Part shown: in pieces, positions 1-44,568 of the stretch | Layout of the letters: each line of letters opens with the position of its first letter | Position numbering within the stretch: position 1 is the first letter of the stretch | Origin: a virus | DNA: 44,568 nucleotides | Reading direction: 5' to 3' (one strand) | Virus genome (UHGV): UHGV-0171754 | Notes under the pieces: generated by a model | Databases searched by the model: none | What the model was told of the DNA's origin: nothing | What the model saw: the letters and a program-made list of their open reading frames with translations, nothing else | Made by a program: the position numbers and the translations under genes

Positions 1-300
1 GGGGCCAATGACCCCCGTCTAGTCTGAAAGACTGGGCTTTGTCCCGCCTGTCCCGATCGGCTAAACCCCGCGGCAGCACTGGCGGGGACAGGGGTGCTGT
101 CCCGCCTTGTCCCGCCCCATTCTGTCCCGCTTTTTGTCCCGTTTGTTTTATGCACGAAAACTGAATAGATATTCACATTTTGGAGGCGGGACAGATCGGG
201 ACAGCACCCCTGTCCCGCTTTTAATTTATGCAATGAAAGTGAGTATATATGCTGTTTAATGGTGGCGGGACAAAACGGGACGTCCCGCCTGTCCCGCTCC
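1..300. repeat. Element A: dense array of about 13 GTCCCGC / GCGGGAC heptamers in both orientations, following the junction hairpin
   Basis: Copies at about 41-47, 50-56, 83-90(rc), 99-106, 110-116, 124-130, 136-142, 186-193(rc), 197-203(rc), 212-218, 265-272(rc), 277-283(rc), 291-297; no ORF of note on either strand. Confidence 0.8.
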
Positions 301-6680: not shown

Positions 6681-6685
6681 CGAAA

Positions 6686-6706
6686 AAGGGGCCATTATGG
6701 CCCCTT
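6686..6706. terminator. Bidirectional intrinsic terminator between convergent genes
   Basis: 9 bp stem aaggggcca/tggcccctt with 3 nt loop, A-run upstream and T-rich run downstream. Confidence 0.6.
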
Positions 6707-6925
6707 AATTATTTGCTGCAACTCCAGCACCTGCGCCCTTAGCTTCGCCCCGCATTCCATATTTTTCACGTCAATCATCAAATCTTCGTCGGGGTCCGCA
6801 GACGGGTTATCGAACTTGCACGGCGGTCGCAGTGCCGATTCCGTTAGCGGCATCAACGGCACGCTGCTTGATCCGCACGCGCTCAGCGTCAAAACTACAA
6901 TCAGGGCGGTTAGGGCGCGTAACAT
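6695..6925 (-). CDS. o-spanin (Rz1-like outer membrane lipoprotein)
   Basis: 76 aa from MLRALTALIVVLTLSAC; lipobox LSAC, proline-rich mature part; reading frame overlaps the 3' part of the i-spanin gene. Confidence 0.55.
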   Translation of the reverse strand: MLRALTALIVVLTLSACGSSSVPLMPLTESALRPPCKFDNPSADPDEDLMIDVKNMECGAKLRAQVLELQQIIKGP

Positions 6926-9747: not shown

Positions 9748-11133
9748 TTAGTAGAAGTCTACAGTTGGAACAACGGCGATTGGGCGAATCACTGGGAACA
9801 AGTGCGCAATAGGATAGCCCGCTGCGTCATTCATGTGGTCCACCCCGGCCGTTTTATCCGGCTCGCCTTTCTTCAGGTCGTAAACCTGCTGTTCCAGACA
9901 TTTCGCTAGTGTAGGGCATTTATCCAGGTTGACAAAATACTGGCGTACACCCTTCGAGTTGCACATCATCGTATTCATCGCGATCAATCGGTCTTTCACA
10001 GGTGGGTTAACGCTGTCGTACTCCACCTCGAAGCCCGCATCTTCCAGTTGCGCGATATCGGACGACGACGCGTTGACCGTTTTGCGGGATTTTCCGCTGC
10101 TATCCGGATACACGACGACCCTACCGGCGGCACAATGTTCCGGGTAGCGCTCCTCGATCGCCTCAATCATAGCCGGGGTGTCAAACAGGTCCACAAATTC
10201 ATCCACCGCGTGAATCTCGTCGCGGAACTCCTTGTTCTCGGTGGTACGCTGCCGTCTTACATACACGACCGCCGCCATTTTCGTGACGTTAAAGTCTATA
10301 CCGATAATCAGCGTATCGTCCGGTTGTACTTCTTCGGTGCTGGCGTTCTCATCGCGGTTGAACATCTTGTACACCGCGCCCGACGTAAGGTTAACAAACA
10401 GACCGTTCAGGTACGCATCAATCAGGTTCGCCGGGTACTGACTGCGCAGCGTGTCGATAAAGTCTGCCGGTAAATGGTGGTTGTCGGTGGTCTTCGCCCG
10501 GATCAGGCGCTTTTGGCTATCCTTCTCCACCTCGAAAATTTGATACATCGCCCGGTAGCCTTCAGGCGTGGATACTATGACGAACTGGCGGACGAAGCCC
10601 GCACGCAGACGACCTAGCAATTTGTGATATGCCGCCAGCGCGACGTCTTGTTTCGTGGTGTCGAACTCGTCGGCAACAATCCACGCGGCGTTGACCCCGA
10701 TCAGGCGGGTATAGTTCTCCATTGATTCACAGATCACGCGGGTCCATTTGCCTTTCACCAGAACGCTATAGATCTTGTCCTGCTTGTTGAACTTCCACCG
10801 GAAGCCAGCCTCGTCGAAAGCCTTCTCCAGTTCCGGATACATGATTTTAACCAGGAGGGGAATAGTCGGCTCCGTAACAATGCCATCATGACCGGGGTTC
10901 AGGGTTAAAAGCTGGATGACCTTACGCGCAGCGACCCACGACTTTCCGCCACCGAAGCCAGAACACAGGCCGAGGATTTTAGTCTTAGTGTCCCGCAGTA
11001 GTTCGACCTGGTGCGGAAGGCAATCAGGCTGGTAAAGCCGCACCGCCTGCGCAACGCGTGTTGGGCGTGGTGGTCGGTTGCGCTTTGCGATCGTGCGCTC
11101 CAGTGCGCGGTGTTCCGCCGCATAGTTACGCAT
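9748..11133 (-). CDS. Terminase large subunit
   Basis: 461 aa; P-loop GLCSGFGGGKSW and acidic ADEFD motif in the N-terminal ATPase part; start overlaps the small-subunit stop (TAATG). Confidence 0.9.
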   Translation of the reverse strand: MRNYAAEHRALERTIAKRNRPPRPTRVAQAVRLYQPDCLPHQVELLRDTKTKILGLCSGFGGGKSWVAARKVIQLLTLNPGHDGIVTEPTIPLLVKIMYPELEKAFDEAGFRWKFNKQDKIYSVLVKGKWTRVICESMENYTRLIGVNAAWIVADEFDTTKQDVALAAYHKLLGRLRAGFVRQFVIVSTPEGYRAMYQIFEVEKDSQKRLIRAKTTDNHHLPADFIDTLRSQYPANLIDAYLNGLFVNLTSGAVYKMFNRDENASTEEVQPDDTLIIGIDFNVTKMAAVVYVRRQRTTENKEFRDEIHAVDEFVDLFDTPAMIEAIEERYPEHCAAGRVVVYPDSSGKSRKTVNASSSDIAQLEDAGFEVEYDSVNPPVKDRLIAMNTMMCNSKGVRQYFVNLDKCPTLAKCLEQQVYDLKKGEPDKTAGVDHMNDAAGYPIAHLFPVIRPIAVVPTVDFY

Positions 11134-11684
11134 TATTCGCCCTGGCCTTTGCCGGTAGGTTCGACAACGACGTCGCCGTTATCATCTTCGTCGTCATCCA
11201 GTGGGATATCGTCGCGTACGCCGTGGTTGGCTTTAAGCAGGAACGTGGCGAAGCCCGCCGCGATGGTCACGCCGCCAGCTTCCATCAGGAAAGTTTTCTG
11301 CAACTCCATCGCGTCAGCCATCGCCTCGGCGAACTCCTCATGTGCGCGCGCCCAGCGATACAGGCAAGCTACGCCCACACCGATTTCCGCGGCAAATCGA
11401 CCGAAGGTTGGCATTTTGTTGCGGGGGATTACTTGCGCAGCGCCTTTATCGGAGTAGTTGACCTGCCAGGCGTCGGCGTCGGCAAAATAGCGGCGAAGCT
11501 GGTCGCAGTAAACGGATCGGTAGTCCGTAGGGCGTCCACATTTGCCGCCTTTACGGCGCTTGCCGTACTCGATCTCAGGTCCGAGATTGGTATGCTCGGT
11601 TTGCTCGCCTGGTTTACGGCGCGGGGTTACAGCCACTCGTCCGTCCAGTTTGGCGCGTCGGCCCTTAACTTTGATTTCTGCCAT
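11133..11684 (-). CDS. Terminase small subunit (putative)
   Basis: 183 aa from ATG (MAEIKVKGRR) with AAAAGGG RBS; basic N-terminus, acidic C-terminus; directly upstream of large subunit. Confidence 0.55.
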   Translation of the reverse strand: MAEIKVKGRRAKLDGRVAVTPRRKPGEQTEHTNLGPEIEYGKRRKGGKCGRPTDYRSVYCDQLRRYFADADAWQVNYSDKGAAQVIPRNKMPTFGRFAAEIGVGVACLYRWARAHEEFAEAMADAMELQKTFLMEAGGVTIAAGFATFLLKANHGVRDDIPLDDDEDDNGDVVVEPTGKGQGE

Positions 11685-11814
11685 GGTATATGCCCTTTTG
11701 TTCATATGCGCCGACCATCGGCAACATAGGAGACGGCCCTGCCATCTAATTGGGATTATAACAGGCACAAAAAAGCCCACCAAATCGGCAGGCTGGGAGG
11801 CTTACGGGTTGCCG

Positions 11815-15945: not shown

Positions 15946-15995
15946 TTGGTGTGCAACCAATATATCAGGGTGCCAGGCGGGGCGCAACCAATATT
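15946..15995 (-). promoter_or_regulatory. Promoter with extended -10 (TGaTATATT), two TTGGTTGC octamers and TTGGT-N5-ACCAA operator
   Basis: Minus-strand reading attggttgcgccccgcctggcaccctgatatattggttgcacaccaacatgagga ATG; leader nearly identical to 5884-5910. Confidence 0.5.
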
Positions 15996-16145
15996 AATCA
16001 CGCGCATGAAAAAGTCGATCGCTATCTGCTGCAACTGCAAACCGCATTTTTCACCCCCCATTCTGCAACTTGCATTGGTTGCCTAGTTCAGCGACGACCG
16101 CAATCCGCAACATGCTGCCGTGTATTTTGCAATCCTGGATTTTAT

Positions 16146-16198
16146 GCAGTCTCAGACGAGGGGGGTGACAGACCCCCCGTCTAGTCTGAAAGACTGGG
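16146..16198. other. Element B hairpin: interrupted palindrome agacgagggggg-tgacaga-cccccc-gtct plus agtct-gaa-agact
   Basis: Same arms as the window-junction palindrome but different loop (tgacaga versus ccaatga). Confidence 0.6.
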
Positions 16199-16305
16199 GT
16201 GCTGTCCCGCTGTCCCGCTCCTCCCCAGGCCGCGTCATCCGGGGCGGGACAGGGGTGCTGTCCCGCTTTGTCCCGCCTCCTGTTTGTCCCGCTTTTTGTC
16301 CCGCT
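16199..16305. repeat. Element B: array of 7 GTCCCGC / GCGGGAC heptamers, homologous to window positions about 80-150
   Basis: Copies at 16204-16210, 16212-16218, 16245-16251(rc), 16259-16265, 16270-16276, 16285-16291, 16298-16304; block gggacaggggtgctgtcccgc...tttttgtcccg shared with element A. Confidence 0.8.
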
Positions 16306-16349
16306 TACTTTATGCAGTTTTATTGCATAACTATTCACTATATTTACAC

Positions 16350-16471
16350 TACACGGCAACCAATGCGACCAGCTAAAAACACTCAAAATGGCAACCAATG
16401 CGCGCAAAATTTAATCTCTTAGCGATATGGGAATTCCCATACCGGCAACCAATGCGCGCAAAATTTAATCT
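16350..16471. repeat. Iteron-like direct repeats (28 bp x2 plus one partial copy) with a 16 bp perfect palindrome between them
   Basis: ggcaaccaatgcgcgcaaaatttaatct at 16390-16417 and 16444-16471, partial copy ggcaaccaatgcg at 16354-16366; palindrome tatgggaattcccata at 16426-16441; the last repeat overlaps the 3' end of the primase gene. Confidence 0.75.
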
Positions 16472-18735
16472 TTCAGGTCGTCATCGGTCGCCGAAAGCGT
16501 GATGGGTATATTCGTTTTGATGACGATATTCGACGACCCATAGATGGCCCCAGTGTGCGGATCTGTATAAAAACCGAGTACGCCGCGCTCGACCATATCG
16601 TCGATTGCCTTCGTCGATGTGCCACCTTTCGCGAGTCCGGCCTGGCGGACAATTGCCGATTTACTGAATCCAGTATGGTCCGGGTTATCTTCCATCAGTT
16701 TTTCCAGGGCCGCATAAAGCACTTTCTCTTTTTCGTTGCGCGGTCCGGCGGTGTTCTCTTCCTTAACCGCGGCCTTGCCTGCTGCCTTCGCCTGTTCTAT
16801 AGCGAACGGTGCCAGGGCAACCGGTACGAGGTAGAGAGTCTCGTCGCGAGGCGTGGAGGCAATCGGCTTGACGTCCCATCCGGCAACCACGTCGCCGAAG
16901 TCTGGCCCAGTGCTGGTGGACTGGTGCGCCTCGAACGCTTCTGACTTGCGGAGATCTACCTTCACCTTGCACTTGAGCAGGACGAAGCCGCGCGGCGCTT
17001 GCTTGATGCCGTTACGTGACTTCTCATGATACAGGTTCAATTGCCCGGGCTGGTTGTCGTCCGGCTGTTCCAGGAAGAACGCTGAATCGACAGCACCATG
17101 CAGCGCGCCGGACCCGCGTGGGGTTCTGCTGCCGTTTGCACCCTTCGCCGGGTGGTGGATGACGCCCGCACTGCCACCTGTATTTTCCGCAATGGCTTTC
17201 AGCGCTTTGACCACTTCACCCATATCGCTGGCGTTGTTCTCGTCAAACGGTTTAGCATCGGCGGACCGCAGCGCAACAGTCTGGTTGAGTGAGTCGAACG
17301 CCACCAGGCCAACAGGTTCACCGTTAGCGGTGCGATTGATGAAGCTGATAACTTCACGCAAGCCGGACTTGCTTGTGATATCCCAGCCGCGTGATTGCAG
17401 GTCGATAATGTGCAGCTTGTCCAGGTCGTGCTCGTATTTAATCTGCAATGCTTCTTTGCGCTGGTTGGAGGCTTCGCCACCTTCCGCGTCGAAATAGAAG
17501 CAATGAGACTGGACGACCTTCGCACCGCCAAACGGAATACCGGCGGCAACCGCGCCCATCTGCCCAAGCACATAGAAAGACTTACCGATATTCGACTCGC
17601 CAGCCATGTACCAGGTCGATTTAAAGTTAATCAACCCCTCGATGATCGGGTCGTGCTTACTGAACAGCGCAACCGGCTCGTTATCCAGATCCGCATCGGT
17701 GCACACGCCGTATTCTTCGCCGTCGCCAACCGCATCAACAATATGTTCATAGCACGACTCCACTTCCTCGTCGTCCAGCCCCGGAAGGATGGCGGCGATT
17801 TGCTTACGGGACATATTGTGTGGCTCGACGTTCAGGTGGTCCGGGATCCCGATAAGACGTAGCGCCAGGTGCTGGTGTCTGTTCAGTTCCGAGCAACACT
17901 CGTTTCCGGTGTGCATACACTTGAAACGGATCTCGCCATCCTTAACCATTATGGCGGTGGACCCTTCGCCGCTGTGCAGATGTTCGTTCGGGCACGGCAC
18001 CTCATAACCACGCCCGGACGACAGTGGTTCGAATCCTGCCTGGAAGCACCAGTCCAGAATGCCGTCCGCCACTTCGTCGTCTCCCTTGGTTAGTTCGCGG
18101 CGTACTTCCTCTTTATCCACCCCCAGCTTATCCGCCAGGCGAAGCAGACGACGGACGCGGGCACGTTTGCCGTAATGACACTTTATTACAGACTGCTGGT
18201 GTGGCAGGTACATCAGGCGGTTTGTGTCTTTCGTGCAATCGTCGAAGTCCACATCTGACAGACCCAGTTGGGCTAACAGGGCATACTGGGCGCGTCCCAG
18301 GTCTTCAGCCGGTACAGGCTTGTCCGTCAACACCAGGAAGCGAGCGCAACGTGTTCCACCTTTCAGTGGGTGACGGTCGCCGGTTGTGGTGTGAAATACG
18401 TGTTCAAGACCCGCGTCAATGAACGCCTTACGGCAGCGGCGTAGGGTGCGGGTGTCGGTGCGGTCAATATCGAAGAACAGGATCGAGCGGTCCACCGCAC
18501 TGGTCTTACGACGCAATCCGTCACTGGTATACGCCACGATGCCGTCGGCCTTACGCTTGCGGCGCGCATACTCGGCTTTATCTTCCGTCTTGTTGATATG
18601 CACCGAGGAGATTTCTTTCGCATCATTGATAAATTCGAAAAACTCTTCGGTAGTCATCTGGAAGTTTTCCGCCCTGGCTTTTTCGCCTTTTTTAGCGGGT
18701 CTTGTTACGGCGAATTTAATTAAACTCATGGTCAT
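16465..18735 (-). CDS. DNA primase/helicase (N-terminal primase-like domain, Cys cluster, C-terminal RecA-like P-loop ATPase)
   Basis: 756 aa; Walker A AGESNIGKS; Cys cluster CPNEHLHSGEGSTAIMVKDGEIRFKCMHTGNEC. Confidence 0.7.
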   Translation of the reverse strand: MTMSLIKFAVTRPAKKGEKARAENFQMTTEEFFEFINDAKEISSVHINKTEDKAEYARRKRKADGIVAYTSDGLRRKTSAVDRSILFFDIDRTDTRTLRRCRKAFIDAGLEHVFHTTTGDRHPLKGGTRCARFLVLTDKPVPAEDLGRAQYALLAQLGLSDVDFDDCTKDTNRLMYLPHQQSVIKCHYGKRARVRRLLRLADKLGVDKEEVRRELTKGDDEVADGILDWCFQAGFEPLSSGRGYEVPCPNEHLHSGEGSTAIMVKDGEIRFKCMHTGNECCSELNRHQHLALRLIGIPDHLNVEPHNMSRKQIAAILPGLDDEEVESCYEHIVDAVGDGEEYGVCTDADLDNEPVALFSKHDPIIEGLINFKSTWYMAGESNIGKSFYVLGQMGAVAAGIPFGGAKVVQSHCFYFDAEGGEASNQRKEALQIKYEHDLDKLHIIDLQSRGWDITSKSGLREVISFINRTANGEPVGLVAFDSLNQTVALRSADAKPFDENNASDMGEVVKALKAIAENTGGSAGVIHHPAKGANGSRTPRGSGALHGAVDSAFFLEQPDDNQPGQLNLYHEKSRNGIKQAPRGFVLLKCKVKVDLRKSEAFEAHQSTSTGPDFGDVVAGWDVKPIASTPRDETLYLVPVALAPFAIEQAKAAGKAAVKEENTAGPRNEKEKVLYAALEKLMEDNPDHTGFSKSAIVRQAGLAKGGTSTKAIDDMVERGVLGFYTDPHTGAIYGSSNIVIKTNIPITLSATDDDLKD

Positions 18736-18739: not shown

Positions 18740-19069
18740 TTATTTGGAAGTTTTATTATTGCGTACCCAGGAGCGCACTGTGCTCTGATTAATTCCGGTC
18801 AACTCGGCAATCATCGCCCAAGATTTGCCCTCGGCGCGCAAACGGATAACCTGTTTTTTGTATTCTTCCATTTCTTCATTGTGCTTCTGCAGCTTGCTCG
18901 CCGCCGTACCGTTGAGCAATTCCAGCCTGGCGCGCAATTCTTTTTCGGTAAGTCGCAGACGTTCGATTTCAAATAGCACCGCACCCACGGCATCGGTATA
19001 CGCCCATGACCGGCTTGTCTCACTGCAAACAGTCTTCGTTAACATTTCGATTGCGTCGTTTACATTCAT
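18740..19069 (-). CDS. Transcriptional regulator with C-terminal HTH
   Basis: 109 aa; GAGGG RBS; C-terminal GKSWAMIAELTGINQSTVRSWV is helix-turn-helix-like; coiled-coil centre. Confidence 0.55.
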   Translation of the reverse strand: MNVNDAIEMLTKTVCSETSRSWAYTDAVGAVLFEIERLRLTEKELRARLELLNGTAASKLQKHNEEMEEYKKQVIRLRAEGKSWAMIAELTGINQSTVRSWVRNNKTSK

Positions 19070-19275: not shown

Positions 19276-19471
19276 TCACCCCGTCGACAGGATGCAGGAC
19301 GCAAACTGGAGAGGGGCAACGCAGGGGCCGGATCGAAGTGTCAGGATTCCCAACCGTGATTATATAACCTGGTCCACTACCCGAAAGGGAGAACGCGCAA
19401 CCAGGCAATATGTTAAGGCCACCGACGAAGTTAACTGCCGACACCTAAACTTAACCAATCGGAGATATACC

Positions 19472-20011
19472 ATGTTTGAGCAAATCGGAAACCTGATCAC
19501 TCGCGGCGTAGTAGCACTGGAAATCATCGCTAAGCATTATGAAACCGTTGGCGCTGCCGTAGACCCAAAAGCAAACGGCACCGCTAAGAAAGGCAAGGCC
19601 AAGCCGGAGACTGAAGTCGAAGACGACGATCAGGACGAAGTCGAAGATACGCCTAAAACGAAAAAAGGCGCGGCAAGAGAAACCAAGTCTAAAGGTAAGG
19701 CCAAAAAAGAAGTCGTAGAAGATGACGACGACGATGACGCCGATGACGTGAAACCAGCGAAGGGTAAAAAAGCACCGGCGAAAGGCAAAGGCAAGAAAGA
19801 TGCCGATCCGCTGGCAGAGATGCGCGACGAAATCAAACAGTATGCCGCGATTATCGCCGGTGGTGATGACGACGATGCTAACGACGAATTTGATGACCTG
19901 CTGGAAGCGTTCGAGATCAAATCGATCGCTAAACTGGAAGATGACGACGTAGAAGACTTCCACAAAGACCTGAAAGAAATCGTCGAAACCTATTTCGAAC
20001 TGGAAGACTAA
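19472..20011 (+). CDS. Highly charged low-complexity protein (acidic runs alternating with Lys-rich stretches), first gene of rightward early operon
   Basis: 179 aa from ATG (MFEQIGNLITRG) with GGAGA RBS; segments EVEDDDQDEVEDT, VVEDDDDDDADDV, KPAKGKKAPAKGKGKK, GGDDDDANDEFDD; terminator follows. Confidence 0.65.
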   Translation: MFEQIGNLITRGVVALEIIAKHYETVGAAVDPKANGTAKKGKAKPETEVEDDDQDEVEDTPKTKKGAARETKSKGKAKKEVVEDDDDDDADDVKPAKGKKAPAKGKGKKDADPLAEMRDEIKQYAAIIAGGDDDDANDEFDDLLEAFEIKSIAKLEDDDVEDFHKDLKEIVETYFELED

Positions 20012-20017
20012 TATTAT

Positions 20018-20047
20018 CCGGCCCGCTAATCTGCGGGCCTATTTTTA
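20018..20047 (+). terminator. Intrinsic terminator or attenuator
   Basis: Stem gcccgc/gcgggc with 6 nt loop, then ctattttt. Confidence 0.55.
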
Positions 20048-20059
20048 GAGGACGAGACA

Positions 20060-20311
20060 ATGGCACGCTTCACGCTAATCGAGGCGGTGGATTCCCGCGA
20101 CCAGCGCCCGTACTATTGGCTATTCGAACGCATCGGCAGCTTTCAGTCACGCGTTGCCGTAATAGATAAACGCCGTAACACCCCCGCGCAAATTAAGCGC
20201 ACCACCTTTACTAACCCCGACTTTTATATTTGGGCGGATTCCAATCTGGAATATGTTCGCTTCGCAGTTGCATCCGAAGCAAAAACAATTGACCGCTGGG
20301 AGACAAAATAA
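20060..20311 (+). CDS. Small hypothetical protein (83 aa)
   Basis: GAGGA RBS 7 nt before ATG. Confidence 0.5.
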   Translation: MARFTLIEAVDSRDQRPYYWLFERIGSFQSRVAVIDKRRNTPAQIKRTTFTNPDFYIWADSNLEYVRFAVASEAKTIDRWETK

Positions 20312-20500
20312 ATGGCTATATTCTTTGTTTTATTTCGTTGCCGTATTACCGGCGACGAGCAACCGGAAATTGTTATGAATCAAAACTGGAATTGCTGCTG
20401 GATGCAAGCCCGAGGACTGGCGGCTACCATGAACAATGCCGCTAAGCGGGCCAATGTTGAACATGATTATTACATTGCTCAGTTTTCAAGGGTGGAATAA
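20312..20500 (+). CDS. Small hypothetical protein (62 aa)
   Basis: ATG directly after upstream stop; weak RBS; Cys/Trp-rich. Confidence 0.3.
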   Translation: MAIFFVLFRCRITGDEQPEIVMNQNWNCCWMQARGLAATMNNAAKRANVEHDYYIAQFSRVE

Positions 20501-21930
20501 TGGCGATTAAACCAAAACGTAAAACGCAATCCGGTAGCAATACGGAACACTCATTACTTGGGCCATCCGGTGCTAAAAAGTGGATGGGTTGCCCTGCTGC
20601 CCTGGTGGTGGAAAAAGATATCCCGAACGAATCCGGGCAGGCCGCGATTAACGGTACGAGTATGCACACCGTATCTGAGGTGGTGCTAAACCGCATTATC
20701 GCCGGTGAGAAGCAGATAACCGCGAAGACGTATAAAGGGTGCTACGTCGAGAACGAAGGCAAGGGGCCAGTAAAGGCACACCCGAAAGCGCCGAAAGGCG
20801 GCGTGCTGGTCAACGACGATATGGTTAAACAGTGCGACGCGTACATCGACCACTGGCGACCGCTCCTCGAAGTGGCGGAGTTTGTTCAGCTTGAGATGCG
20901 CGCCGATCTCACCCGCGTCCTACACTCTGGCTTCGAGATCGACGGCAACCGGGTTAAGACGTTCGGCACTGCGGATATGGTCATGGTCATGAAGAAGACC
21001 GACGGCACGTACATGCTGATTGTTGGCGACCTGAAGACGGGGCGGCATAAGGTCGAGGCGAAAGAAAACAAACAGCTTATGCTGTATGCGCTCGGCCTGC
21101 TGCGCAAGCTGCAATCCATGTACGACATCACGACCGTGCGCCTGGTTATCTTCCAGCCATATTGCGGCGGGGCGTCGGAGTGGGATATTTCGGTAGAAGC
21201 CCTGGAGATATTCGCGAAGTTTGCGTCCAAGCGTGCTATCGCCGCCCTGGAAGCGTACGCCCGCGGCAAGAAGGGACTAACCCGCGCGGACTTCCGGCCC
21301 AGCGTCGATGCGTGCCAGTGGTGTCGATTTGCGGATCAGTGTAGTGCCCGCGCTAAGGCCGCAATCGACACGATGACCCCACCGACGGCAACCGACGAAG
21401 ACCTGGGCGACGACGTGAGTATTGCGACAGAGGAAGAATGCGCCAACCATGCCCGCAATATGGCCCGCGAAGCCCGGAAGGCGGCTCGACGCGCGAAGCG
21501 TGGTAAGAAAGAAGCAGCCCCCGGTGCTATGAGCGCTGCGGAACTGCGCAAGGCTTATGAAGGCCTGGACGCAATGCGCCAGCACATCAAGGCTATCGAG
21601 TCCGCGGTATTCAAGGCGGTCATGGCTGGCGATGGCGAATCGCTGGGCCTCAAGATGGTTGCCGGTAGGGAAGGGGTCCGTAAGTGGGCGGACGAGAGCG
21701 AAGTGATTGAAATCTTCACGAAGGCCCGGATCAAGCGCGATGTGATGTACAAAGAAACATTGCTCAGTCCTACGGATGCCGAGAAGGTATTGAAGGACGA
21801 GAAGCCGAAAGTGTGGGCTAAATTATGTAATAAAATCACGCGCGCACCGGCTAAACCGGTATTAGCACCCATCGACGACCCGCGCCCTGCGTGGTCGGAG
21901 GCCACTGACGAGGACTTAAGCAATGAATAA
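20500..21930 (+). CDS. PD-(D/E)XK nuclease of the Cas4/RecB-like class (resembles DUF2800) with C-terminal Cys cluster
   Basis: 476 aa; motifs GTADMVMV, VGDLKTGRH, QLMLYALG and CQWCRFADQC; start overlaps upstream stop (TAATG). Confidence 0.7.
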   Translation: MAIKPKRKTQSGSNTEHSLLGPSGAKKWMGCPAALVVEKDIPNESGQAAINGTSMHTVSEVVLNRIIAGEKQITAKTYKGCYVENEGKGPVKAHPKAPKGGVLVNDDMVKQCDAYIDHWRPLLEVAEFVQLEMRADLTRVLHSGFEIDGNRVKTFGTADMVMVMKKTDGTYMLIVGDLKTGRHKVEAKENKQLMLYALGLLRKLQSMYDITTVRLVIFQPYCGGASEWDISVEALEIFAKFASKRAIAALEAYARGKKGLTRADFRPSVDACQWCRFADQCSARAKAAIDTMTPPTATDEDLGDDVSIATEEECANHARNMAREARKAARRAKRGKKEAAPGAMSAAELRKAYEGLDAMRQHIKAIESAVFKAVMAGDGESLGLKMVAGREGVRKWADESEVIEIFTKARIKRDVMYKETLLSPTDAEKVLKDEKPKVWAKLCNKITRAPAKPVLAPIDDPRPAWSEATDEDLSNE

Positions 21931-22105
21931 AGTATTTGCGATCTTATTGATGTTTTTGCTCGGCGCGCTGGGCTTTATCCTGCATTGCGTGCAAGGCGTG
22001 TTAATGGTGGCGTGGATTGCGAGACATGGCGACCGACCGCCGTTAAGCTGGGTCGAGAACACCATCTACTATGTGACCAGAAATCTTTTTAATGAAAATG
22101 CTTGA
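21923..22105 (+). CDS. Small membrane protein (60 aa)
   Basis: Hydrophobic N-terminus (VFAILLMFLLGALGFIL); GAGGA RBS; overlaps upstream stop. Confidence 0.4.
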   Translation: MNKVFAILLMFLLGALGFILHCVQGVLMVAWIARHGDRPPLSWVENTIYYVTRNLFNENA

Positions 22106-22137
22106 CCGCTTAGGCGCAACCAAGTAGATTAGCAACC
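22102..22137 (+). promoter_or_regulatory. Candidate promoter (TTGACC-17-TAGATT) with two GCAACCAA octamers
   Basis: -35 at 22102-22107, -10 at 22125-22130, octamers at 22116-22123 and 22130-22137. Confidence 0.4.
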
Positions 22138-22195
22138 AAGCCGAACGGGGTGGCTCATAATAACCCCGATACATGTGAGAATGAGGAATTGGAAA

Positions 22196-22912
22196 ATGGC
22201 TAAAGTCAACCTGAAAAATGTGCGCGTATGTTTCCTTAAAATTTGGGAACGTGATACCCCTAAACAGGATGGACAAAAACCGGCATACCGTGCAGTGATT
22301 CTTCTTGATAAAGAAGATCCGCAGGTGGACAAAGTGGAAGCGGCAGCGCGCGCAGTGCTCACCGACAAGCTGAAATCCGAGAAGAATGCTGATAAGTGGA
22401 TGGACCGCCACTACGCCCAGGATTCTAAGGAATGCGCAGTCCGCGACGGTGACGAGCGCGACGAAGTAACCGAAGAATTCGAAGGCATGTTGTACATCAA
22501 CGCTAAATCGTTCAAACAGCCAAACATTCAAACGTCACTCGGCGAGAAGCAGACTGAACAAGGTCTGACCGTAGAAGGCGACGAGATCGAAGGCCAGGAG
22601 ATCTACTCCGGTTGTTATTGCAACGTGTCCCTGGATATTTGGGCGTGGAACAATACCAACGGCAAGGGACTCGGTGCCGGTCTTTTGGGTCTGCGCTTCC
22701 GCGATGACGGCGAAGCCTTCGGCGGTGGCGGATCTTCTTGCTCCGACGAAGACCTGGGCGACGACGACGAAGATGAAGTGCCACGCAAGTCCAAAAAGTC
22801 AAAACGTCGTGATGACGATGACGAAGATGAAAAACCTCGTAAACGTCGTAAGCCACGCGATGACGAAGATGATGACGACGACGAAGCGCCACGTAAACGT
22901 CGCCGCCGTTAA
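22196..22912 (+). CDS. Putative ssDNA-binding protein (resembles DUF2815) with charged low-complexity C-terminal tail
   Basis: 238 aa from ATG (MAKVNLKNVRVCF) with GAGGA RBS; lies between the Cas4-like nuclease and DNA polymerase; tail DDDEDEVPRKSKKSKRRDDDDEDEKPRKRRKPRDDEDDDDDEAPRKRRRR. Confidence 0.55.
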   Translation: MAKVNLKNVRVCFLKIWERDTPKQDGQKPAYRAVILLDKEDPQVDKVEAAARAVLTDKLKSEKNADKWMDRHYAQDSKECAVRDGDERDEVTEEFEGMLYINAKSFKQPNIQTSLGEKQTEQGLTVEGDEIEGQEIYSGCYCNVSLDIWAWNNTNGKGLGAGLLGLRFRDDGEAFGGGGSSCSDEDLGDDDEDEVPRKSKKSKRRDDDDEDEKPRKRRKPRDDEDDDDDEAPRKRRRR

Positions 22913-22930
22913 GGGCAAAGCCCACTATTC

Positions 22931-22957
22931 AAGCCCGCTTAATGCGGGCTTTTTAAT
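22931..22957 (+). terminator. Intrinsic terminator or attenuator
   Basis: Stem agcccgc/gcgggct with 5 nt loop, then ttttaat. Confidence 0.6.
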
Positions 22958-22970
22958 AGGACAATGAAAA

Positions 22971-23141
22971 ATGCGCATTAAAGCCAGCGAAGTAAAAGTC
23001 GGAATGCAGGTATGGTCTAAATTGCTGGGCGAGTATTTCACCGTTGCCGAGATTCGCAACAACGGCGAGGAGATAACCCTTTCCGACGGTATCTTCTCCA
23101 TGTTCGGCAGCGCTGACGCCGTAGTGAGGATTAAGCAATGA
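22971..23141 (+). CDS. Small hypothetical protein (56 aa)
   Basis: MRIKASEVKVGMQVWSKLLGEYFTVAEIRNNGEEITLSDGIFSMFGSADAVVRIKQ; AGGA RBS; stop overlaps polymerase ATG (ATGA); below track threshold. Confidence 0.4.
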   Translation: MRIKASEVKVGMQVWSKLLGEYFTVAEIRNNGEEITLSDGIFSMFGSADAVVRIKQ

Positions 23142-25429
23142 AAGACTTCGAACGCCTTTTTCTCGATACCGAGACATTTAGCGGGGTGGACCTGAAGAAA
23201 GTGGGCGCATACGCCTACGCAGAGCACCCAACAACCGAGATTATGATTTGCACCTACGCCATCGACGAGGGCCGCGTGCAGACATGGGATTGCACAGAGT
23301 CCCCAACAATGCCGCGTGAACTGCGCAAGGCGCTCCGCAGGGTATCCCGCAAGAAAGCAAAAATAGTGATGGCTAACGGCCTCCTGTTTGACCGCCTGGT
23401 CATTCGCGAGAAGTGGGGCATTGACCTGCCAGTGTGCCAGATCGAAGACACCATGATTATGGCCTTTCGACACGCGCTGCCGGGTGGCCTCGATATGCAG
23501 TGCCAGGTGTTGGGCGTTGACGCAGAGCACGCGAAGGATAAGGCGGGCAAGGCGCTGATCAAACGATTCTGTAAGCCAACCCCTAAGACCTACAAAATCC
23601 GCCGCTACACGCGCGAGACGCACCCCGAGGAGTGGGCTAAATTCCTGCGCTATGCCGCGTTGGATATCATCGCTATGAGGGAAGTCTATTGGCGCATACC
23701 GGACTGGGGCAACACGCCGAAGGAAGACGAAATCCTGCTTATTGACCAGTTGATCAATGACCGCGGCTTCTATGTGGACGTTGACCTGGCGAACGCCGCG
23801 ATCAAAGCGGTGCAGGCGCATAAGGAAGAATTGAAGGAAGAAGCCTGGGAGCGCTTCGGCGGTAAGCTGACCGGCAATGACTTCTTGCCCGCGCTGCGCG
23901 ACCTCGCGCCTGCGTTCACGATCCACAACGCGCAGAAATCCACGCTTAACGACCTGCTTGAAGATCCAGACTTCCCTGACGAGGGCAAAGTGCTTATCGA
24001 GATGCGCCTCGGGGCATCATCAACGGCGTCGACTAAGTACAATCCGCTCGTAAATGGGCTGTCTGCCGATGGTCGCCGCCGTGGTTGTCTTCAGTATGGT
24101 GGGGCAAAGCGCACGCTACGCTGGGCCGGTAAGGGCTTCCAGCCGCAAAACCTGGCACGCGGCGAGTATAGCGACGACCACGAAGGGAAGATTAAGCGCC
24201 GTGAAGGCGAGAGCGACGTCGCGTTTTGGGTGCGGTCGCACATGCTTACCAACGGCATCAACTCCCTGTTACGCGGGACCGCACACTGGGCGTATGACAT
24301 ATCGAAGTTAACAGCCTCGACCGTTCGCGGGTGCATTATTCCGGCTAAGGGAAAGAAGTTTGTCGTAGCGGACTATTCTAACGTGGAAGGGCGTGGCCTC
24401 GCCTGGATCGCTGGCGAGAAAACCGCGCTAATGGTGTTTAGGGCGGGTCGCGATATTTATTGTGAAACTGCCGGTAAGATGTTTGGCCTCGACCCGGAAT
24501 ACATTAAAGCCAACCGCAAAGACTTACGCCAGATCGGTAAGGCGTGCGAATTGGGACTAGGCTATGGCGGCGGCGTTGCGGCGTTCTTGCAGTTCGCTAA
24601 AAACCTGGGCCTCGACCTTTACGCGATGGCTGACGTGATGAAGGGCACATTCCCAGACCACATATGGGCGGCGGCGAAACGTGGTTATGAGTACGCCCGA
24701 ATCAACGAAGCGAAGCGCCCGCCGAAGCCTGGCAAGAAGGACGAGCGCCCAACTTATATACTGCCGAAAAACGTGTGGTTGACGTGTGACGCGATCAAAC
24801 GTATGTGGCGTGAGGCCCACCCGAAGACGGTAGCCTTTTGGGCCGAACTGGAAGACGCGGTGTTGTGTGCAATCCGCAATCCAGGCAAAGCGTACTGGGC
24901 TGGCGCGAACGTTCGCCCGGATGGCAGGAAAGCGCTTAAGATTGTTCGCACGAAGGCGAAGCATGACCCAACCTTCGACGAGGAGCGCGACGACCCGAAC
25001 GCGGCGGGGTGGTGGCTTAAAATTGAGTTGCCGTCAGGGCGCATCATGAGTTATCCGGGCATCGCGCTGTCTGTCACTACCGAGATCGACGAAGATACTG
25101 GCAAGAAACGCACCAGCACCCGCATTAAATACCAGGGCGAGAATCAGACGACGCGCCAGTGGGGCTTCCAGTATACCTACGGCGGCAAACTGACGGAAAA
25201 CATCGTGCAGGCGCTGTGTCGCGATATCCTCGCATGGTCCATGCCTGGCGTTGAATCCGCGGGATACGAGATCGTCCTGTCAGTGCACGATGAATTGATC
25301 ACCGAAGTTCCGGATACTGACGACTACACGACCGAGGAGCTATGCGCGCTGATGTGCGACCTGCCTATTTGGGCGAAAGGGTTCCCACTTGCCGCCGAAG
25401 GCGATTGTATGTATCGCTACCGCAAGTAG
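23138..25429 (+). CDS. Family A DNA polymerase with 3'-5' exonuclease domain
   Basis: 763 aa; exo motif FLDTETFSG; polymerase motif A DYSNVEGRGLAWIAGE, motif B RQIGKACELGLGYGGG, motif C SVHDELITEV. Confidence 0.9.
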   Translation: MKDFERLFLDTETFSGVDLKKVGAYAYAEHPTTEIMICTYAIDEGRVQTWDCTESPTMPRELRKALRRVSRKKAKIVMANGLLFDRLVIREKWGIDLPVCQIEDTMIMAFRHALPGGLDMQCQVLGVDAEHAKDKAGKALIKRFCKPTPKTYKIRRYTRETHPEEWAKFLRYAALDIIAMREVYWRIPDWGNTPKEDEILLIDQLINDRGFYVDVDLANAAIKAVQAHKEELKEEAWERFGGKLTGNDFLPALRDLAPAFTIHNAQKSTLNDLLEDPDFPDEGKVLIEMRLGASSTASTKYNPLVNGLSADGRRRGCLQYGGAKRTLRWAGKGFQPQNLARGEYSDDHEGKIKRREGESDVAFWVRSHMLTNGINSLLRGTAHWAYDISKLTASTVRGCIIPAKGKKFVVADYSNVEGRGLAWIAGEKTALMVFRAGRDIYCETAGKMFGLDPEYIKANRKDLRQIGKACELGLGYGGGVAAFLQFAKNLGLDLYAMADVMKGTFPDHIWAAAKRGYEYARINEAKRPPKPGKKDERPTYILPKNVWLTCDAIKRMWREAHPKTVAFWAELEDAVLCAIRNPGKAYWAGANVRPDGRKALKIVRTKAKHDPTFDEERDDPNAAGWWLKIELPSGRIMSYPGIALSVTTEIDEDTGKKRTSTRIKYQGENQTTRQWGFQYTYGGKLTENIVQALCRDILAWSMPGVESAGYEIVLSVHDELITEVPDTDDYTTEELCALMCDLPIWAKGFPLAAEGDCMYRYRK

Positions 25430-25497
25430 CGGAAATGTTGCTTTTAGCGGAAACGTCGGGCAATATTGTCTGGCGTTTTCTTTTTCGGGGGTGTATA

Positions 25498-26099
25498 TGA
25501 AACATTGTGGGCGTTGTAATACGGATAAAGATGAGTCCGCTTTCAACAAGGGTCAGTCGTGGTGCGCCAAATGCATGGCGGCGTATAAGAAAGAGAGACG
25601 GGATAAGGAAAGAGGAGCGCCGCCGCGCGAAGTATGGCGAGAGTATACCGGGGAAGTCGTAACATGCCGTACGTGCGGAGAGCGCAAGCGGCTCACGCCG
25701 GAAAACTTCCGGCCCGGAAACCGGGCAAGCCAGTCTCATATTCGTAAAGAATGCCGGTTGTGCGCTAATAAGTCCCGCCGTGAGTACAACCACCGGTCAC
25801 CAGAGGTCCGCGCATACTATAAGCTCTTTCAGTACCGTAAGGCGGACGAAAGGAAGGGGTTAAAAACCGACCTTACCACCGAGGACGTGCTACGCCTTAC
25901 TTCTCAGCCATGCGCGTACTGCGGATTCACCGGCGACAATGGCGCGGACCGACTCGACAACGCAGTAGGCCATACGAAAGATAACTGCGTACCGTGCTGC
26001 GTAGAGTGCAACATAGCCCGCGGTGACCGGTTTACCCCGGACGAAATGAAGAAGTTTATTGGGCCTGCCATAGCTGCCGTAAGGAAAAGCCGACAATGA
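25498..26099 (+). CDS. HNH endonuclease with N-terminal Cys-rich zinc-ribbon region
   Basis: 200 aa from ATG (MKHCGRCNTDKD) with GGGGG RBS; C-terminal CAYCGFTGDNGADRLDNAVGHTKDNCVPCCVECNIARGD. Confidence 0.6.
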
Positions 26100-26374
26100 C
26101 ACCAGAAGGCAAGATCCAAAGTCACCTTATGAAGTTGGTTAAAGCCGTAGGCGGATTCTGCCGTAAAGTGGCATGGGAGGGGCGCGCGGGTGCGCCCGAT
26201 CTGATTATCATCATCAACGGCAAAATAGTGTTCGTCGAAGTGAAGCGCCCAGGCGGCAAACCGAAGCCGCACCAGATACGAGAACATGAGCGAATGGCCC
26301 GCCGCGGTGCGGACGTTCGCGTTATCGACAACATAGCAGACTGTGATTTATTGGTTGCTGAGTTGGTCGCGTAG
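26096..26374 (+). CDS. VRR-NUC domain nuclease
   Basis: 92 aa; PDLIIIINGKIVFVEVKRPGGKPKPHQ signature; start overlaps upstream stop (ATGA). Confidence 0.65.
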   Translation: MTPEGKIQSHLMKLVKAVGGFCRKVAWEGRAGAPDLIIIINGKIVFVEVKRPGGKPKPHQIREHERMARRGADVRVIDNIADCDLLVAELVA

Positions 26375-26414
26375 CGGTATAGTGGGCCGGTTAGCACTAT
26401 CGAGGATTTTAGAA

Positions 26415-26588
26415 ATGGTTGAAGAAAAACGTTGCAGTAATTGCGGCTGCGTTAAACCGCTGTCCCAGTTCCATAAATACACCGGTAAGACTGCGCGAAG
26501 CCCGGACGGGTATCGGGCAGAGTGCAAATCGTGCCGCAATAAAAAAGAGCGCGAACGGCAGCGCCGCTACCGAGCAGAGCAAAAATAA
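26415..26588 (+). CDS. Small zinc-ribbon protein (57 aa)
   Basis: ATG (MVEEKRCSNCGC) with GAGGA RBS; CxxC...CxxC pattern resembling the N-terminus of the HNH protein. Confidence 0.4.
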   Translation: MVEEKRCSNCGCVKPLSQFHKYTGKTARSPDGYRAECKSCRNKKERERQRRYRAEQK

Positions 26589-26631
26589 TTAATACGGCGG
26601 GCTTGTCCCGCCATTTTTTGGAGACATGACG

Positions 26632-26850
26632 ATGAAAGAACATTATCGACTCACCACACTGGGCGAATGCAAACCAGGCGATCGCGTATGGTTTATCGCG
26701 GGCATGAATAACCCGCTGCCGTTAACGGTGTGCTGGCAAAAATTTAATAGCTTCCGGGCGACGGGTGTACACATCGGACACAGCACCAACTATGACGCCA
26801 CAAAAAGGAACTGGAACAGTGAAACCGAAGTCTGGAAAAAGGCGGAATAA
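26632..26850 (+). CDS. Small hypothetical protein (72 aa)
   Basis: ATG (MKEHYRLTTL) with GGAGA RBS. Confidence 0.4.
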   Translation: MKEHYRLTTLGECKPGDRVWFIAGMNNPLPLTVCWQKFNSFRATGVHIGHSTNYDATKRNWNSETEVWKKAE

Positions 26851-26854
26851 AGAT

Positions 26855-28279
26855 ATGGCACGTTTCCGACGTCGCGAATATCAGAAGTTGATAACCGCGT
26901 TCATCCTCAAGCATAAGCGATGCAATATATGGGCGACAATGGGGTCGGGTAAAACCGGCGCGACCATGTGGGCGCTGAATAAAATGTTCCAGACCGGTAT
27001 CCTGTCCAACCAGGAGGACCGCGTACTGGTGCTGGCCCCGCTGCGCGTTGCATCTGGCACATGGCCCCCGGAACAGGAAAAATGGCGATTCCCCGCCTTG
27101 CTGGTAGTAGACGGCACCGGGTCTGAAAAAGACCGTATAGCCGCGCTTGAGAGCGGCGCTAACGTAGTTTGTGTTAACTATGATGTAGTTGAGTGGCTGG
27201 TTGACTATTACGGCGATGCGTGGCCCTTTACGGTCGTTGTTGCCGATGAATCCACTAAGCTGAAAGGTTATCGAAGCAAGCAGGGAAGTAAGCGTGCCCG
27301 TGCGCTGGCAGCGATCGCACATAAGCACGTCAAGCGCTGGATTAACCTGACCGGCACACCCGCACCAAACGGACTGAAAGACCTGTGGGGTCAGACGTGG
27401 TTTGTCGACGGCGGCGAACGCCTCGGCAGTAGTTATAAGGCATTCACTGATCGCTGGTTTATTAGCAAGCCTGTTAAGCCTGGCAGCTTTACTATGCAGC
27501 ACGCCCCGCTTAAGAACTCCGAGAAAGAAATACAACAACGCCTGTCTGACGTATCGCTCACCGTTGATGCGGCTGAATACTTCGGATGTGACAAGCCAAT
27601 CTATACGCCGGTTGTTGTGGACCTGCCGAAGAAAGCCCGCAAGATCTACGACCAGTTTGAAAGCGAGCTATTTGCCGAACTGGAAAGCGGAACGGTGGAG
27701 GCGGCGAACGCTGCTTCGAAGACCATTAAGTGCCTTCAGCTTGCTTCCGGGGCCGTGTATAAGGTCGACGAAGACGGCGAACGGACCGACGAATGGGTGA
27801 AAATTCACGACGCTAAACTGGACGCGCTGGAAAGTATCATGGAGGAGTTGAACGGCGCACCGTTGCTCGTCGCGTACCAATACAAGCATGATCTGGCGCG
27901 TCTCAAGAAGAAATTCCCGCACGGCGTTGCGTTGGGCAAGGGCAAGCAGGGCAATAAGGATATGGAAGCGTGGAATAGGGGCGAGATCCCCATCATGTTT
28001 GCGCACCCTGCCTCGGCGGGTCACGGCCTCAACCTGCAGGATGGCGGGCACCACCTTGCTATCTTCTCCGATACCTGGAACTTTGAGCACTTTTCGCAGA
28101 TCGTGGAGCGTATAGGGCCGGTTCGCCAGATGCAAGCCGGACACCCCCGTCCAGTATTCGTCTATATTATCCAGGCGCGCGGGACACTGGACGAACTGGT
28201 CGCCGAGCGTCGCGACAGTAAGCGAGATATTCAGGACGACTTGATGGAATACATGAAAGCTAAAAAGGCGCGCAAATGA
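26855..28279 (+). CDS. SNF2-family (superfamily 2) helicase
   Basis: 474 aa from ATG (MARFRRREYQ); motif I ATMGSGKTG, motif II VVADESTKL, motif III LTGTPAPNG. Confidence 0.75.
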   Translation: MARFRRREYQKLITAFILKHKRCNIWATMGSGKTGATMWALNKMFQTGILSNQEDRVLVLAPLRVASGTWPPEQEKWRFPALLVVDGTGSEKDRIAALESGANVVCVNYDVVEWLVDYYGDAWPFTVVVADESTKLKGYRSKQGSKRARALAAIAHKHVKRWINLTGTPAPNGLKDLWGQTWFVDGGERLGSSYKAFTDRWFISKPVKPGSFTMQHAPLKNSEKEIQQRLSDVSLTVDAAEYFGCDKPIYTPVVVDLPKKARKIYDQFESELFAELESGTVEAANAASKTIKCLQLASGAVYKVDEDGERTDEWVKIHDAKLDALESIMEELNGAPLLVAYQYKHDLARLKKKFPHGVALGKGKQGNKDMEAWNRGEIPIMFAHPASAGHGLNLQDGGHHLAIFSDTWNFEHFSQIVERIGPVRQMQAGHPRPVFVYIIQARGTLDELVAERRDSKRDIQDDLMEYMKAKKARK

Positions 28280-29291: not shown

Positions 29292-29296
29292 ATTGG

Positions 29297-29325
29297 TTGC
29301 ATAACCGTATTGGTTGCATTATATT
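29297..29325 (+). promoter_or_regulatory. Candidate promoter (TTGCAT-17-TATATT) with two direct TTGGTTGC octamers
   Basis: Octamers at 29295-29302 and 29310-29317; second ends 2 nt before the -10, same spacing as at 5874/5884 and 31235/31245. Confidence 0.45.
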
Positions 29326-29372
29326 GAGGGTGTCCGGTTTGGACGCCCTTTTTAATACCCGGAGACAGTGAT

Positions 29373-31233: not shown

Positions 31234-31250
31234 GTTGGTTGCAGTATCTT
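31221..31250 (+). promoter_or_regulatory. Candidate promoter (TTGCAA-18-TATCTT) containing inverted octamer pair TTGCAACCAA-tagg-TTGGTTGCA
   Basis: Perfect inverted repeat at 31222-31244 spanning the -35 and spacer. Confidence 0.4.
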
Positions 31251-31296
31251 AATCACGTCGGGGGCAATATCGCCCCTCGCTAAAAAGGGTAATACT

Positions 31297-44485: not shown

Positions 44486-44568
44486 TATGCAGTCCCCCTT
44501 TTTATGCAGTTGCCGTCGGTCATTGTATCAGCGAATTTAAAACAAACCTTATTCAGTCTCAGACGAGG
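44486..44568. other. Left half of element A: untranslated leader upstream of the tape measure gene, ending in ...cagtctcagacgagg, which pairs with window positions 1-30 to form a GC-rich interrupted palindrome
   Basis: End of window plus start of window reads agacgagggggg-ccaatga-ccccc-gtct followed by agtct-gaa-agact; near-identical structure at 16146-16198. Confidence 0.5.

Follow-up and report, generated by a model that had tools for sequence, protein, structure and literature searches.

The 44,568-bp virus genome UHGV-0171754, hereafter the window, i.e., the whole stretch of DNA analysed, is a complete genome of the genus Dhillonvirus (SO-1/HK578-like siphophages, coliphages) and carries two copies of an element combining a long imperfect hairpin with clustered GTCCCGC heptamers. 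Element B adjoins the gene of a helicase-primase of 756 amino acids, and element A lies inside the tail-gene cluster, across the joined ends of the window. Both would be origin-type cis-acting sites bound by the phage helicase-primase for the initiation of replication, the heptamers being iterons for the C-terminal helix-turn-helix-like domain of this protein, which is encoded just upstream of B. Three observations carry this reading, namely the anatomy of both elements, their presence throughout the genus and the co-variation of heptamers and domain across lineages; the binding of the domain to the heptamers, the activity as origin and the role of A are what we infer from them. Because each functional step is drawn from sequence comparison, the probability given to the reading is only about 0.55. 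To our knowledge, neither the replication origin nor the initiator specificity of Dhillonvirus has been described so far.

Anatomy and conservation of elements A and B

In the window, the minus strand carries every gene from 19069 down to 1, continuing from 44485 to 32497, in the order small helix-turn-helix protein, helicase-primase, lysis, terminase, head and tail genes, and a plus-strand block (19292-32469) holds the other replication genes. Element B occupies the gap between the stop of the helicase-primase gene (16465) and the start of the next leftward open reading frame (ORF; 15930), which agrees with the place between primase stop and leftward operon promoter given in the original prediction, made from the sequence of the window; about 150 nucleotides (nt) separate the stop codon from the start of the element. 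The features of B are as follows.

16142..16316 (plus strand): element B, the internal copy, about 175 nt in common with A at 82% identity
16147..16196: extended imperfect hairpin of 50 nt, outer stem CAGTCT (16147-16152) and AGACTG (16191-16196)
16160-16165, 16166-16172 and 16173-16178: G6 arm, loop and C6 arm of the inner stem
16204..16304 (plus strand): heptamer array, with direct GTCCCGC at 16204, 16212, 16260, 16270, 16286 and 16298
16244-16250: inverted GTCCCGC within the array
16244-16266: palindrome GCGGGACAGGGGTGCTGTCCCGC within the array, a perfect 9-bp palindrome made of two inverted heptamers
16305..16355: AT-rich stretch, 73% A+T against about 45% for the genome
16310-16330: palindrome TTATGCA-N7-TGCATAA, inside the AT-rich stretch
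Motif GTGAATAGTTATGCA (minus strand): inside the AT-rich stretch, common to Kagunavirus-like lineages

Read along the minus strand from the helicase-primase stop, the gap thus presents copies of a separate motif (ATTGGTTGC), then the AT-rich stretch with GTGAATAGTTATGCA and the TTATGCA palindrome, four direct heptamers, the palindrome, a locus-specific spacer, two heptamers and finally the 50-nt hairpin. The AT-rich stretch is a candidate DNA-unwinding element or operator. Heptamer spacings of 8, 10, 12 and 16 nt rule out a strict helical phasing. Compared with shuffled sequences, the B hairpin folds with z-scores of -3.1 (RNA, minus strand) and -4.05 (DNA, plus strand), and a 70-nt segment containing it reaches -28.4 kcal/mol (z = -5.1). 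Just past the helicase-primase stop, a 54-nt tandem duplication (GGCAACCAATGCGCGCAAAATTTAATCT..., copies 94% identical) is found at 16390-16476, the duplicated unit being single-copy in most other Dhillonviruses of the alignment.

Element A is sited between a tail-chaperone-like gene and the tape-measure gene and comprises the following features.

44549..44568 (plus strand): left part of element A, continuing at window position 1
1..154 (plus strand): right part of element A, with the rest of the hairpin and its outer stem AGACTG at 29-34
41, 50, 99, 109, 124 and 136: GTCCCG cores of the right part
85-103: palindrome
148-154: TTATGCA
155..300: A-specific extension, two more blocks of inverted and direct heptamers
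187, 197, 266 and 276 (CGGGAC); 212, 282 and 291 (GTCCCG): heptamers of the extension

In the extension, the heptamer blocks are split by stretches rich in A+T (69% at 137-181 and 77% at 218-260, for a genome value of about 45%), and it reaches to 300, where the tail-chaperone-like gene upstream has its stop. The linear ends of the window fall within the G-run in the 5' arm of hairpin A and, since joining them restores the G6 run of other phages, the window corresponds to an exact circular permutation cut in this hairpin.

The two copies were originally judged by eye to be 80-90% identical repeats in the same orientation, and formal alignment bears this out: globally, 16142-16316 and 44549-44568 plus 1-154 match in 145 of 177 columns (81.9%, 5 gap columns, same orientation), and the local score is 184 against 17.4 ± 2.5 for shuffled sequences (maximum 28, n = 500). 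Identity is unevenly distributed: the hairpin module reaches 88%, the centre 73% and the heptamers on the right-hand side 86%. The window contains 21 copies of GTCCCGC where 8.8 ± 3.4 are expected, 16 of them within A (9) and B (7), two regions that together cover less than 600 nt; counted as GTCCCG cores, A holds 13 and B holds 7. Copies of TTTATGCAG do bracket B as had been noticed, at 16141-16149 for the first and at 16309-16317 for the second, whose coordinate had been placed one position off. With further TTATGCA sites at 148, 226, 16324 (minus strand), 44485 and 44502, this flanking sequence is a recurring conserved motif and no target-site duplication.

When relatives were compared, the element was present at both loci throughout the Dhillonvirus records: queries of 2 kb around element B and of 1.5 kb at the window start matched about 159 GenBank phage records at 80-95% identity, none of them identical, and the element occurs in 159/159 of these records, at 335 places in total or about two per genome. 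Non-coding region B is nearly invariant across 15 distinct genomes, and the hairpin stems are invariant within the genus. As first described for this genome, the G6/C5-6 stems are retained and the loops differ, TGACAGA in B and CCAATGA in A. Across the genus, the loops fall into two families, CCNNTGA and TGNCAGA, each found in A of some genomes and in B of others; the linker variants after the hairpin likewise swap between A and B, and the central 60 nt are strictly locus-specific. The loop and linker pattern points to sequence exchange between the A and B copies rather than to free drift of an unconstrained loop. Two of the matching records, GenBank MG065648 (Campylobacter phage A144) and OQ221563 (Acinetobacter phage NJ01), are Dhillonviruses of the ordinary kind, with 88-98% identity to the window over these regions, which suggests mislabelled hosts or contaminating coliphage.

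As an observation, the paired elements are not new. The GenBank record of phage SO-1 (GQ502199) already annotates the same two loci as a repeat 'region A' in the gap between gp16 and the tape-measure gene and a 'region B' in the gap between the helicase-primase gene and gp49, both described as regions 'of direct, inverted and palindromic repeat sequences' that resemble one another, in a note that goes on with 'possible ...'. This is a database annotation, in which the link to a domain of the helicase-primase is not drawn, and a literature search for the SO-1 regions A and B and for the heptamer strings turned up no relevant paper.

Helicase-primase and co-variation of its C-terminal domain with the heptamers

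The gene adjoining B and the part of it proposed to read the heptamers are the following.

16465..18735 (minus strand): helicase-primase gene, 756 amino acids, proposed initiator; PHROG 3228 'replicative helicase-primase' (E = 0), Pfam AAA_25 at residues 359-533
16501..16734 (minus strand): coding region of residues 668-745, a three-helix winged helix-turn-helix-like domain, proposed heptamer reader

A scan of IMG/VR with an alignment of the helicase-primase returned 41 loci. In at least five further lineages among these relatives, a lineage-specific heptamer array lies directly 3' of the helicase-primase gene and is followed by a long hairpin, the heptamers being the following.

L055: GCGGGAC
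L058, L082 and St162: GGGGAGA
L063 and L065: CGGACAA
L079: TCCGACA
L080: CATCCCC

In more distant lineages, where the helicase-primase is 34% identical, an array was not found after the stop codon. Every array-bearing lineage possesses one long imperfect hairpin after the array, of different sequence from lineage to lineage, with folding energies of -23 to -31 kcal/mol and z-scores of -2 to -5. From the divergent loop of the window it had been proposed that structure rather than sequence is under selection. Within the genus this argument does not hold, as the stems never vary and so carry no covariation signal and the loops are exchanged between copies; genuine support for it comes from outside the genus, as the other lineages form the same long hairpin out of different sequences.

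The closest comparisons are those between lineages whose helicase-primases are nearly the same except at their C-terminus. Between L058/L082 on the one hand and L063/L065 on the other hand, residues 1-640 are 96-98% identical, residues 668-745 are 43-44% identical and the heptamers differ. Conversely, L058 and L082 share the same heptamer and are 97% identical over residues 1-640 and 99% over residues 668-745, and so it is for L063 and L065 (97% and 100%, same heptamer). For DNA, the identity of L082 and L063 amounts to 80-93% through most of the gene body, drops to 46-59% over the final 300 nt and remains at 49-66% across array and hairpin, and parts upstream of the helicase-primase gene are 94-96% identical. 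Because the divergence runs from the last 300 nt of the gene through array and hairpin, the C-terminal domain, the heptamers and the hairpin change as one block. Dhillonvirus proteins that share the heptamer GCGGGAC keep, even where the domain is only 57% identical, the sequence GGT(S/N)T(K/T)AI, which lines up with helix three of the model. These data are most simply read as a cognate protein-DNA pair, where the helicase-primase would recognise the heptamers through its C-terminal domain. Another candidate for heptamer binding, the 109-amino-acid helix-turn-helix protein encoded upstream (18740-19069), is disfavoured, as in the sister lineages the heptamers change but stretches ahead of the helicase-primase gene, possibly including the gene of this protein, keep an identity of 94-96%.

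Two named phages outside the genus were compared as well. Salmonella phage St162, with a helicase-primase 43% identical to that of the window, has a single array, directly 3' of the gene and with 6 of the 7 genomic copies of GGGGAGA, whereas its tape-measure gene is not preceded by a gap. In the Eiauvirus phage eiAU-183, both positions are again occupied by large gaps, which counts in favour of the origin-type reading; its own heptamer CGCCCCG and about 50 nt are common to the two, and it has a G/C hairpin (GACGGGGG...CCCCTCGTC) only upstream of the tape-measure gene.

For the helicase-primase as a whole, sequence searches (Pfam, NCBIfam, PDB) gave AAA_25 and a weak match to RSF1010 RepA (1G8Y) only; none of the PDB matches was significant and the SPP1 gp40 helicase (3BGW) was not recovered. 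A BurrH match looks spurious. The record of phage Schulenburg cites an HHpred match to 1NLF. The N-terminal 350 residues had no Pfam, NCBIfam or PDB sequence match by which to assign a type of primase. Alignment of the protein (window 16468-18735, minus strand) with distant relatives conserves a DxD...H pattern close to the N-terminus, the Cys/His cluster CPN..H...C.H and, at the C-terminus, an acidic tail (DDLKD/DDLEN/SDLED), the first two being recognised in our own reading of the alignment.

Origin-type reading and the alternatives

The iteron-type origin is proposed because the pair formed by the helicase-primase and the short repeats adjoins its own gene, an AT-rich stretch and a hairpin. 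What is found at these loci is a repeat cluster far above chance, an adjacent AT-rich stretch (in composition only) and repeats that co-vary with the domain of the presumed initiator, and direct and inverted heptamers beside stretches of 69-77% A+T and stable hairpins give both elements an origin-like composition. The three modelled helices of the C-terminal domain, and its top fold matches with winged-helix DNA binders, also speak for the reading, with the reservations on model and matches given below. As such, the helicase-primase would first bind the heptamer array, its helicase part (RepA/AAA_25 type) would then be loaded beside the AT-rich, unwindable stretch, and the long imperfect hairpin, once single-stranded, would serve as a loading or priming signal. 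Element B, adjoining the initiator gene, would be the primary origin. Element A, because it displays the same heptamers and hairpin but inside the tail genes, is taken as a second initiator-binding site, a duplicated site that may act as second origin or as an initiator-bound site assisting or arresting replication, as SPP1 oriR or P4 crr. Among the four roles suggested in the original prediction, replication or primosome assembly is the one favoured by the comparative evidence.

Several points weigh against this reading. The binding of the heptamers and the firing of an origin are inferred by comparing sequences, and a cognate pair recognised from co-variation could serve autoregulation rather than initiation. 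The adjacency of array and gene is common and not universal, with no array after the helicase-primase gene in L059, L062 and L066. The C-terminal domain, in a 101-residue version, was modelled by AlphaFold as three helices with a predicted local distance difference test (pLDDT) score of about 73 in the helices, but the model is of low overall confidence (mean pLDDT 58; a 217-residue C-terminal model is poor, pLDDT 45), and the top Foldseek matches, all of them winged-helix DNA binders (MarR, LexA, IclR, Rio2 N-domain, DnaD), include none that is significant (E >= 0.48). GC skew along the genome tracks gene and transcription orientation and gives no origin signal. A and B have the same orientation with a single hairpin apiece, whereas in IncQ plasmids the ssi sites are paired on opposite strands. 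Lastly, in lineages outside Dhillonvirus (L063, L079, L080, L082) the hairpin is directly followed by the U-rich tract UUUAUUCAUU, and it could simply be the terminator of the early operon.

This last point belongs to a reading of the elements as transcriptional punctuation, close to the transcription barrier suggested at first, in which the hairpin would end the upstream unit, namely the early operon at B and the tail-tube/chaperone unit at A, and the heptamers would be regulator sites for downstream promoters. It is a rival to be reckoned with, if unlikely as an account of the whole element, and a terminator or regulator role is still plausible for the hairpin. Besides the U-rich tract in sister lineages, the record of phage HK578 annotates the last heptamer palindrome of region A, with its T-run, as a rho-independent terminator; A and B have the same orientation relative to transcription; and terminator-type hairpins at 995, 6683 and 32469 punctuate the same leftward operon. 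Two promoter-like elements just downstream of A and B, with an extended -10-like sequence, can also be put forward.

44522..44530 (minus strand): extended -10-like element TGATACAAT, between hairpin A and the tape-measure start codon (44485); our own reading of the sequence, in a block conserved in the region-A alignment
15959..15987 (minus strand): promoter-like TTGCGC-17-TGATATATT, upstream of the ORF starting at 15930; our own reading, conserved in the alignment

A consensus promoter scan called nothing in either region; around A it spanned window 1-700 only, with the TGATACAAT site outside, and the -35 hexamer of TTGCGC-17-TGATATATT matches the consensus at 3/6 positions. However, in Dhillonvirus the B hairpin is followed by CAUAAAAUCC, which lacks the U-run of an intrinsic terminator, and a terminator scan found none in B and, in the scanned part of A (1-700), a sole hit that is antisense, at 197-217. 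Moreover, 7-13 clustered heptamers are left unexplained by a terminator, and the heptamers co-vary with the C-terminal domain of the helicase-primase while parts of the upstream region, where the regulator genes would lie, stay 94-96% identical.

Other motifs linked to transcription were met in the window. The terminator-type hairpins mentioned above are three copies of AAAAAGGGGCCAT..ATGGCCCCTTA (995-1019, 6683-6707 and 32469-32493), which on the minus strand present a GC stem and then TTTTT and look like intrinsic terminators punctuating the leftward operon, e.g., right after the major tail gene. The motif GCAACCAAT is present in 15 copies for 0.5 expected by chance, as listed below.

GCAACCAAT sites: 5870, 5884, 15419, 15953, 15984, 16074, 16356, 16391
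GCAACCAAT sites, continued: 16445, 19260, 26350, 29292, 29309, 31223, 34339

The copies examined in context are intergenic, six of them around element B, and the complement of the motif overlaps -10-like hexamers at 15953 (TATATTGGTTGC) and 15984 (TAATATTGGTTGC). Variants occur in the same places in eiAU-183 (GCAACCAAC) and in Kagunavirus-like lineages (ATGTTGGCTG), and a phage regulator probably uses the motif as an operator or a site linked to promoters. A further sequence, GTGAATAGT(TATGCA) at 16330-16345 (minus strand), is common to Dhillonvirus region B and Kagunavirus-like lineages (L032, 12720-12760; L033, near 34300). Because it forms part of the spacer in a canonical promoter beside the cro-like gene of phage Schulenburg (TTGACA-A-GTGAATAGT-TCGC-TATTAT), GTGAATAGT is suggested to be an operator.

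The elements could also act as RNA, the transcribed GCGGGAC repeats and hairpins being a leader, a processing site or an antitermination signal of the 31-kb leftward operon, like the lambdoid put/nut pairs. Both copies stand in sense orientation within a single, very long transcription unit running leftward, the RNA of the sense strand outperforms shuffled sequences in folding (z = -3.1) and the hairpin is maintained by different sequences in different lineages. The plus strand of the DNA folds no worse (z = -4.05), which speaks against a strand-specific signal, no Rfam match at gathering thresholds was obtained anywhere in the window, and inverted as well as direct heptamers that co-vary with a DNA-binding-like domain fit recognition of double-stranded DNA better; this makes an RNA element a slim prospect.

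Similarly slim is the prospect of a packaging signal, in which A would be the pac or cos site of the first terminase cut and B an uncut or weaker pseudo-site. The short repeats are of the kind typical of small-terminase binding sites, and the window is linearised inside hairpin A. Record ends were checked in an evenly spaced sample of 60 of the 159 Dhillonvirus records: in five, the break lies within 700 nt of hairpin A, and in two of these five within about 25 nt, where about 0.07 would be expected by chance within ±25 nt (n = 60). The break of UAE_MI-01 lies 9 nt past the hairpin, the Kente record stops in the hairpin loop with about 85 nt missing, Maverick breaks at +118, also inside region A, and eiAU-183 starts in its own region A. 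The record ends at hairpin A and the fetched records starting elsewhere, near B, are the following.

Record ends at hairpin A: window 44568/1; L036 (MW862804); L037 (OX460974)
Fetched records starting near window position ~16031: GenBank MK373789, ON548431 and PV841870 (L083-L085)

The break points at A are spread over up to about 30 nt, and one of them is an assembly gap. The terminase genes (small, 11133-11783; large, 9748-11133), in or beside which packaging sites usually, if not always, lie, are far away, 4.4 kb from B and about 9.7 kb from A, and in related lineages the array follows, and co-varies with, the helicase-primase gene. In published PhageTerm analyses, Opt-212, BF9 and UDS3lw are headful with no terminus placed at A, and the single published 'cos' call (EE09) maps near window 29.3 kb; the BF9 record starts inside a tail gene and that of EE09 near methylase genes, neither touching A or B. 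This speaks against the pseudo-cos site proposed at first. A natural terminus near window 16031, about 110 nt left of B, was rejected, as PTXU06, PEC9 and Pandora71 start 100-101 nt before their first coding sequence, i.e., by an orientation convention; from match coordinates, Zar3M and 101114B2 appear to start there as well.

As the break positions scatter and one case is a gap, the sober reading of the breaks at hairpin A is an assembly or sequencing effect of a structured, twice-repeated segment. A more speculative alternative, for which we see an outside chance, is that hairpin A marks a physical discontinuity of the DNA, e.g., a nick specific to the site, a place of priming or a preferred end produced where the initiator binds, with an SPP1 oriR-like arrest or processing of forks and a switch from circle-to-circle replication to concatemers; a real discontinuity there would explain why independent assemblies break in or beside the hairpin.

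Finally, a mobile element resembling a miniature inverted-repeat transposable element and inserted at 16.2 kb, with the direct TTTATGCAG copies bracketing B (16141-16149 and 16309-16317) as duplicated target site, as had also been suggested, is excluded: both copies are in 159/159 Dhillonvirus records and no empty site was found, other lineages have the same architecture at the same locus, TTATGCA recurs within and beside both regions, also as a palindrome, no terminal inverted repeats were found between the element ends, and no copies exist outside this phage group.

Likeness to known replication systems and significance

Read as origin-type sites, the Dhillonvirus elements share parts of their logic with several known systems, none of them homologous by sequence, so that they would work like these systems without being members of them. 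[quoted passage not shown] Like the phage of the window, SPP1 is a siphovirus of about 44 kb with headful packaging, and it presents a similar pair of sites, in replication module and late genes, for one origin-binding protein. Its initiator gp38 stands, however, as a protein apart, working with a loader of its own and a DnaB-type helicase, whereas the candidate binder here is a domain of a fused helicase-primase; oriL is inside gene 38, whereas B is non-coding, and a long G/C hairpin is an additional feature of the Dhillonvirus elements. Homology in sequence was not detected between the two, and SPP1 would be an analogue of which the Dhillonvirus pair is not a member.

In the satellite phage P4, the repeats are octamers found in both orientations at two separate loci (ori and crr). 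The P4 alpha protein is a multifunctional primase-helicase whose C-terminal winged helix binds short repeats of the origin (PMC4234260). It differs by a Toprim-type primase and an SF3 helicase, where the Dhillonvirus protein has an AAA_25 (RepA/DnaB-like) helicase and a different N-terminal domain, and no sequence match was found between alpha and the helicase-primase of the window. The oriV of the IncQ plasmid RSF1010 combines RepC iterons, an AT-rich region and the hairpins ssiA and ssiB, used by the plasmid-specific primase RepB', with the RepA helicase (PMC8567376). The likeness extends to iterons, AT-rich region, hairpins and a helicase of the same broad type (the weak RepA 1G8Y match), but in RSF1010 the functions are split over three proteins, the iterons measure 20 bp and the two ssi hairpins occupy opposite strands, whereas Dhillonvirus would use one fused protein, 7-bp repeats and one hairpin per element, with both elements in the same direction. 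In the archaeal plasmid pRN1, the origin is a stem-loop of about 100 nt immediately downstream of a gene encoding a primase-helicase-winged-helix protein and beside a terminator-like hairpin, and similar arrangements in some phages were noted by the authors (PMC4234260); pRN1 differs in being without iterons, in its SF3 helicase and in its single site.

Dhillonviruses are among the most often isolated coliphages (159 GenBank records) and are used in the BASEL collection and in phage engineering (PMC11846954). With the paired repeats already on record in a database note, the gain is a mechanistic one. If the reading is true, the origin, the recognition domain of the initiator and the recognition sequence would be obtained in one step, domain and iterons would be swapped between phages as a cassette, like the lambdoid O/ori modules, and the pair would constitute a second, Gram-negative example of an SPP1-style origin pair. 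In practical terms, the element could act as a plasmid-borne decoy against these phages and should stay intact when their genomes are rearranged.

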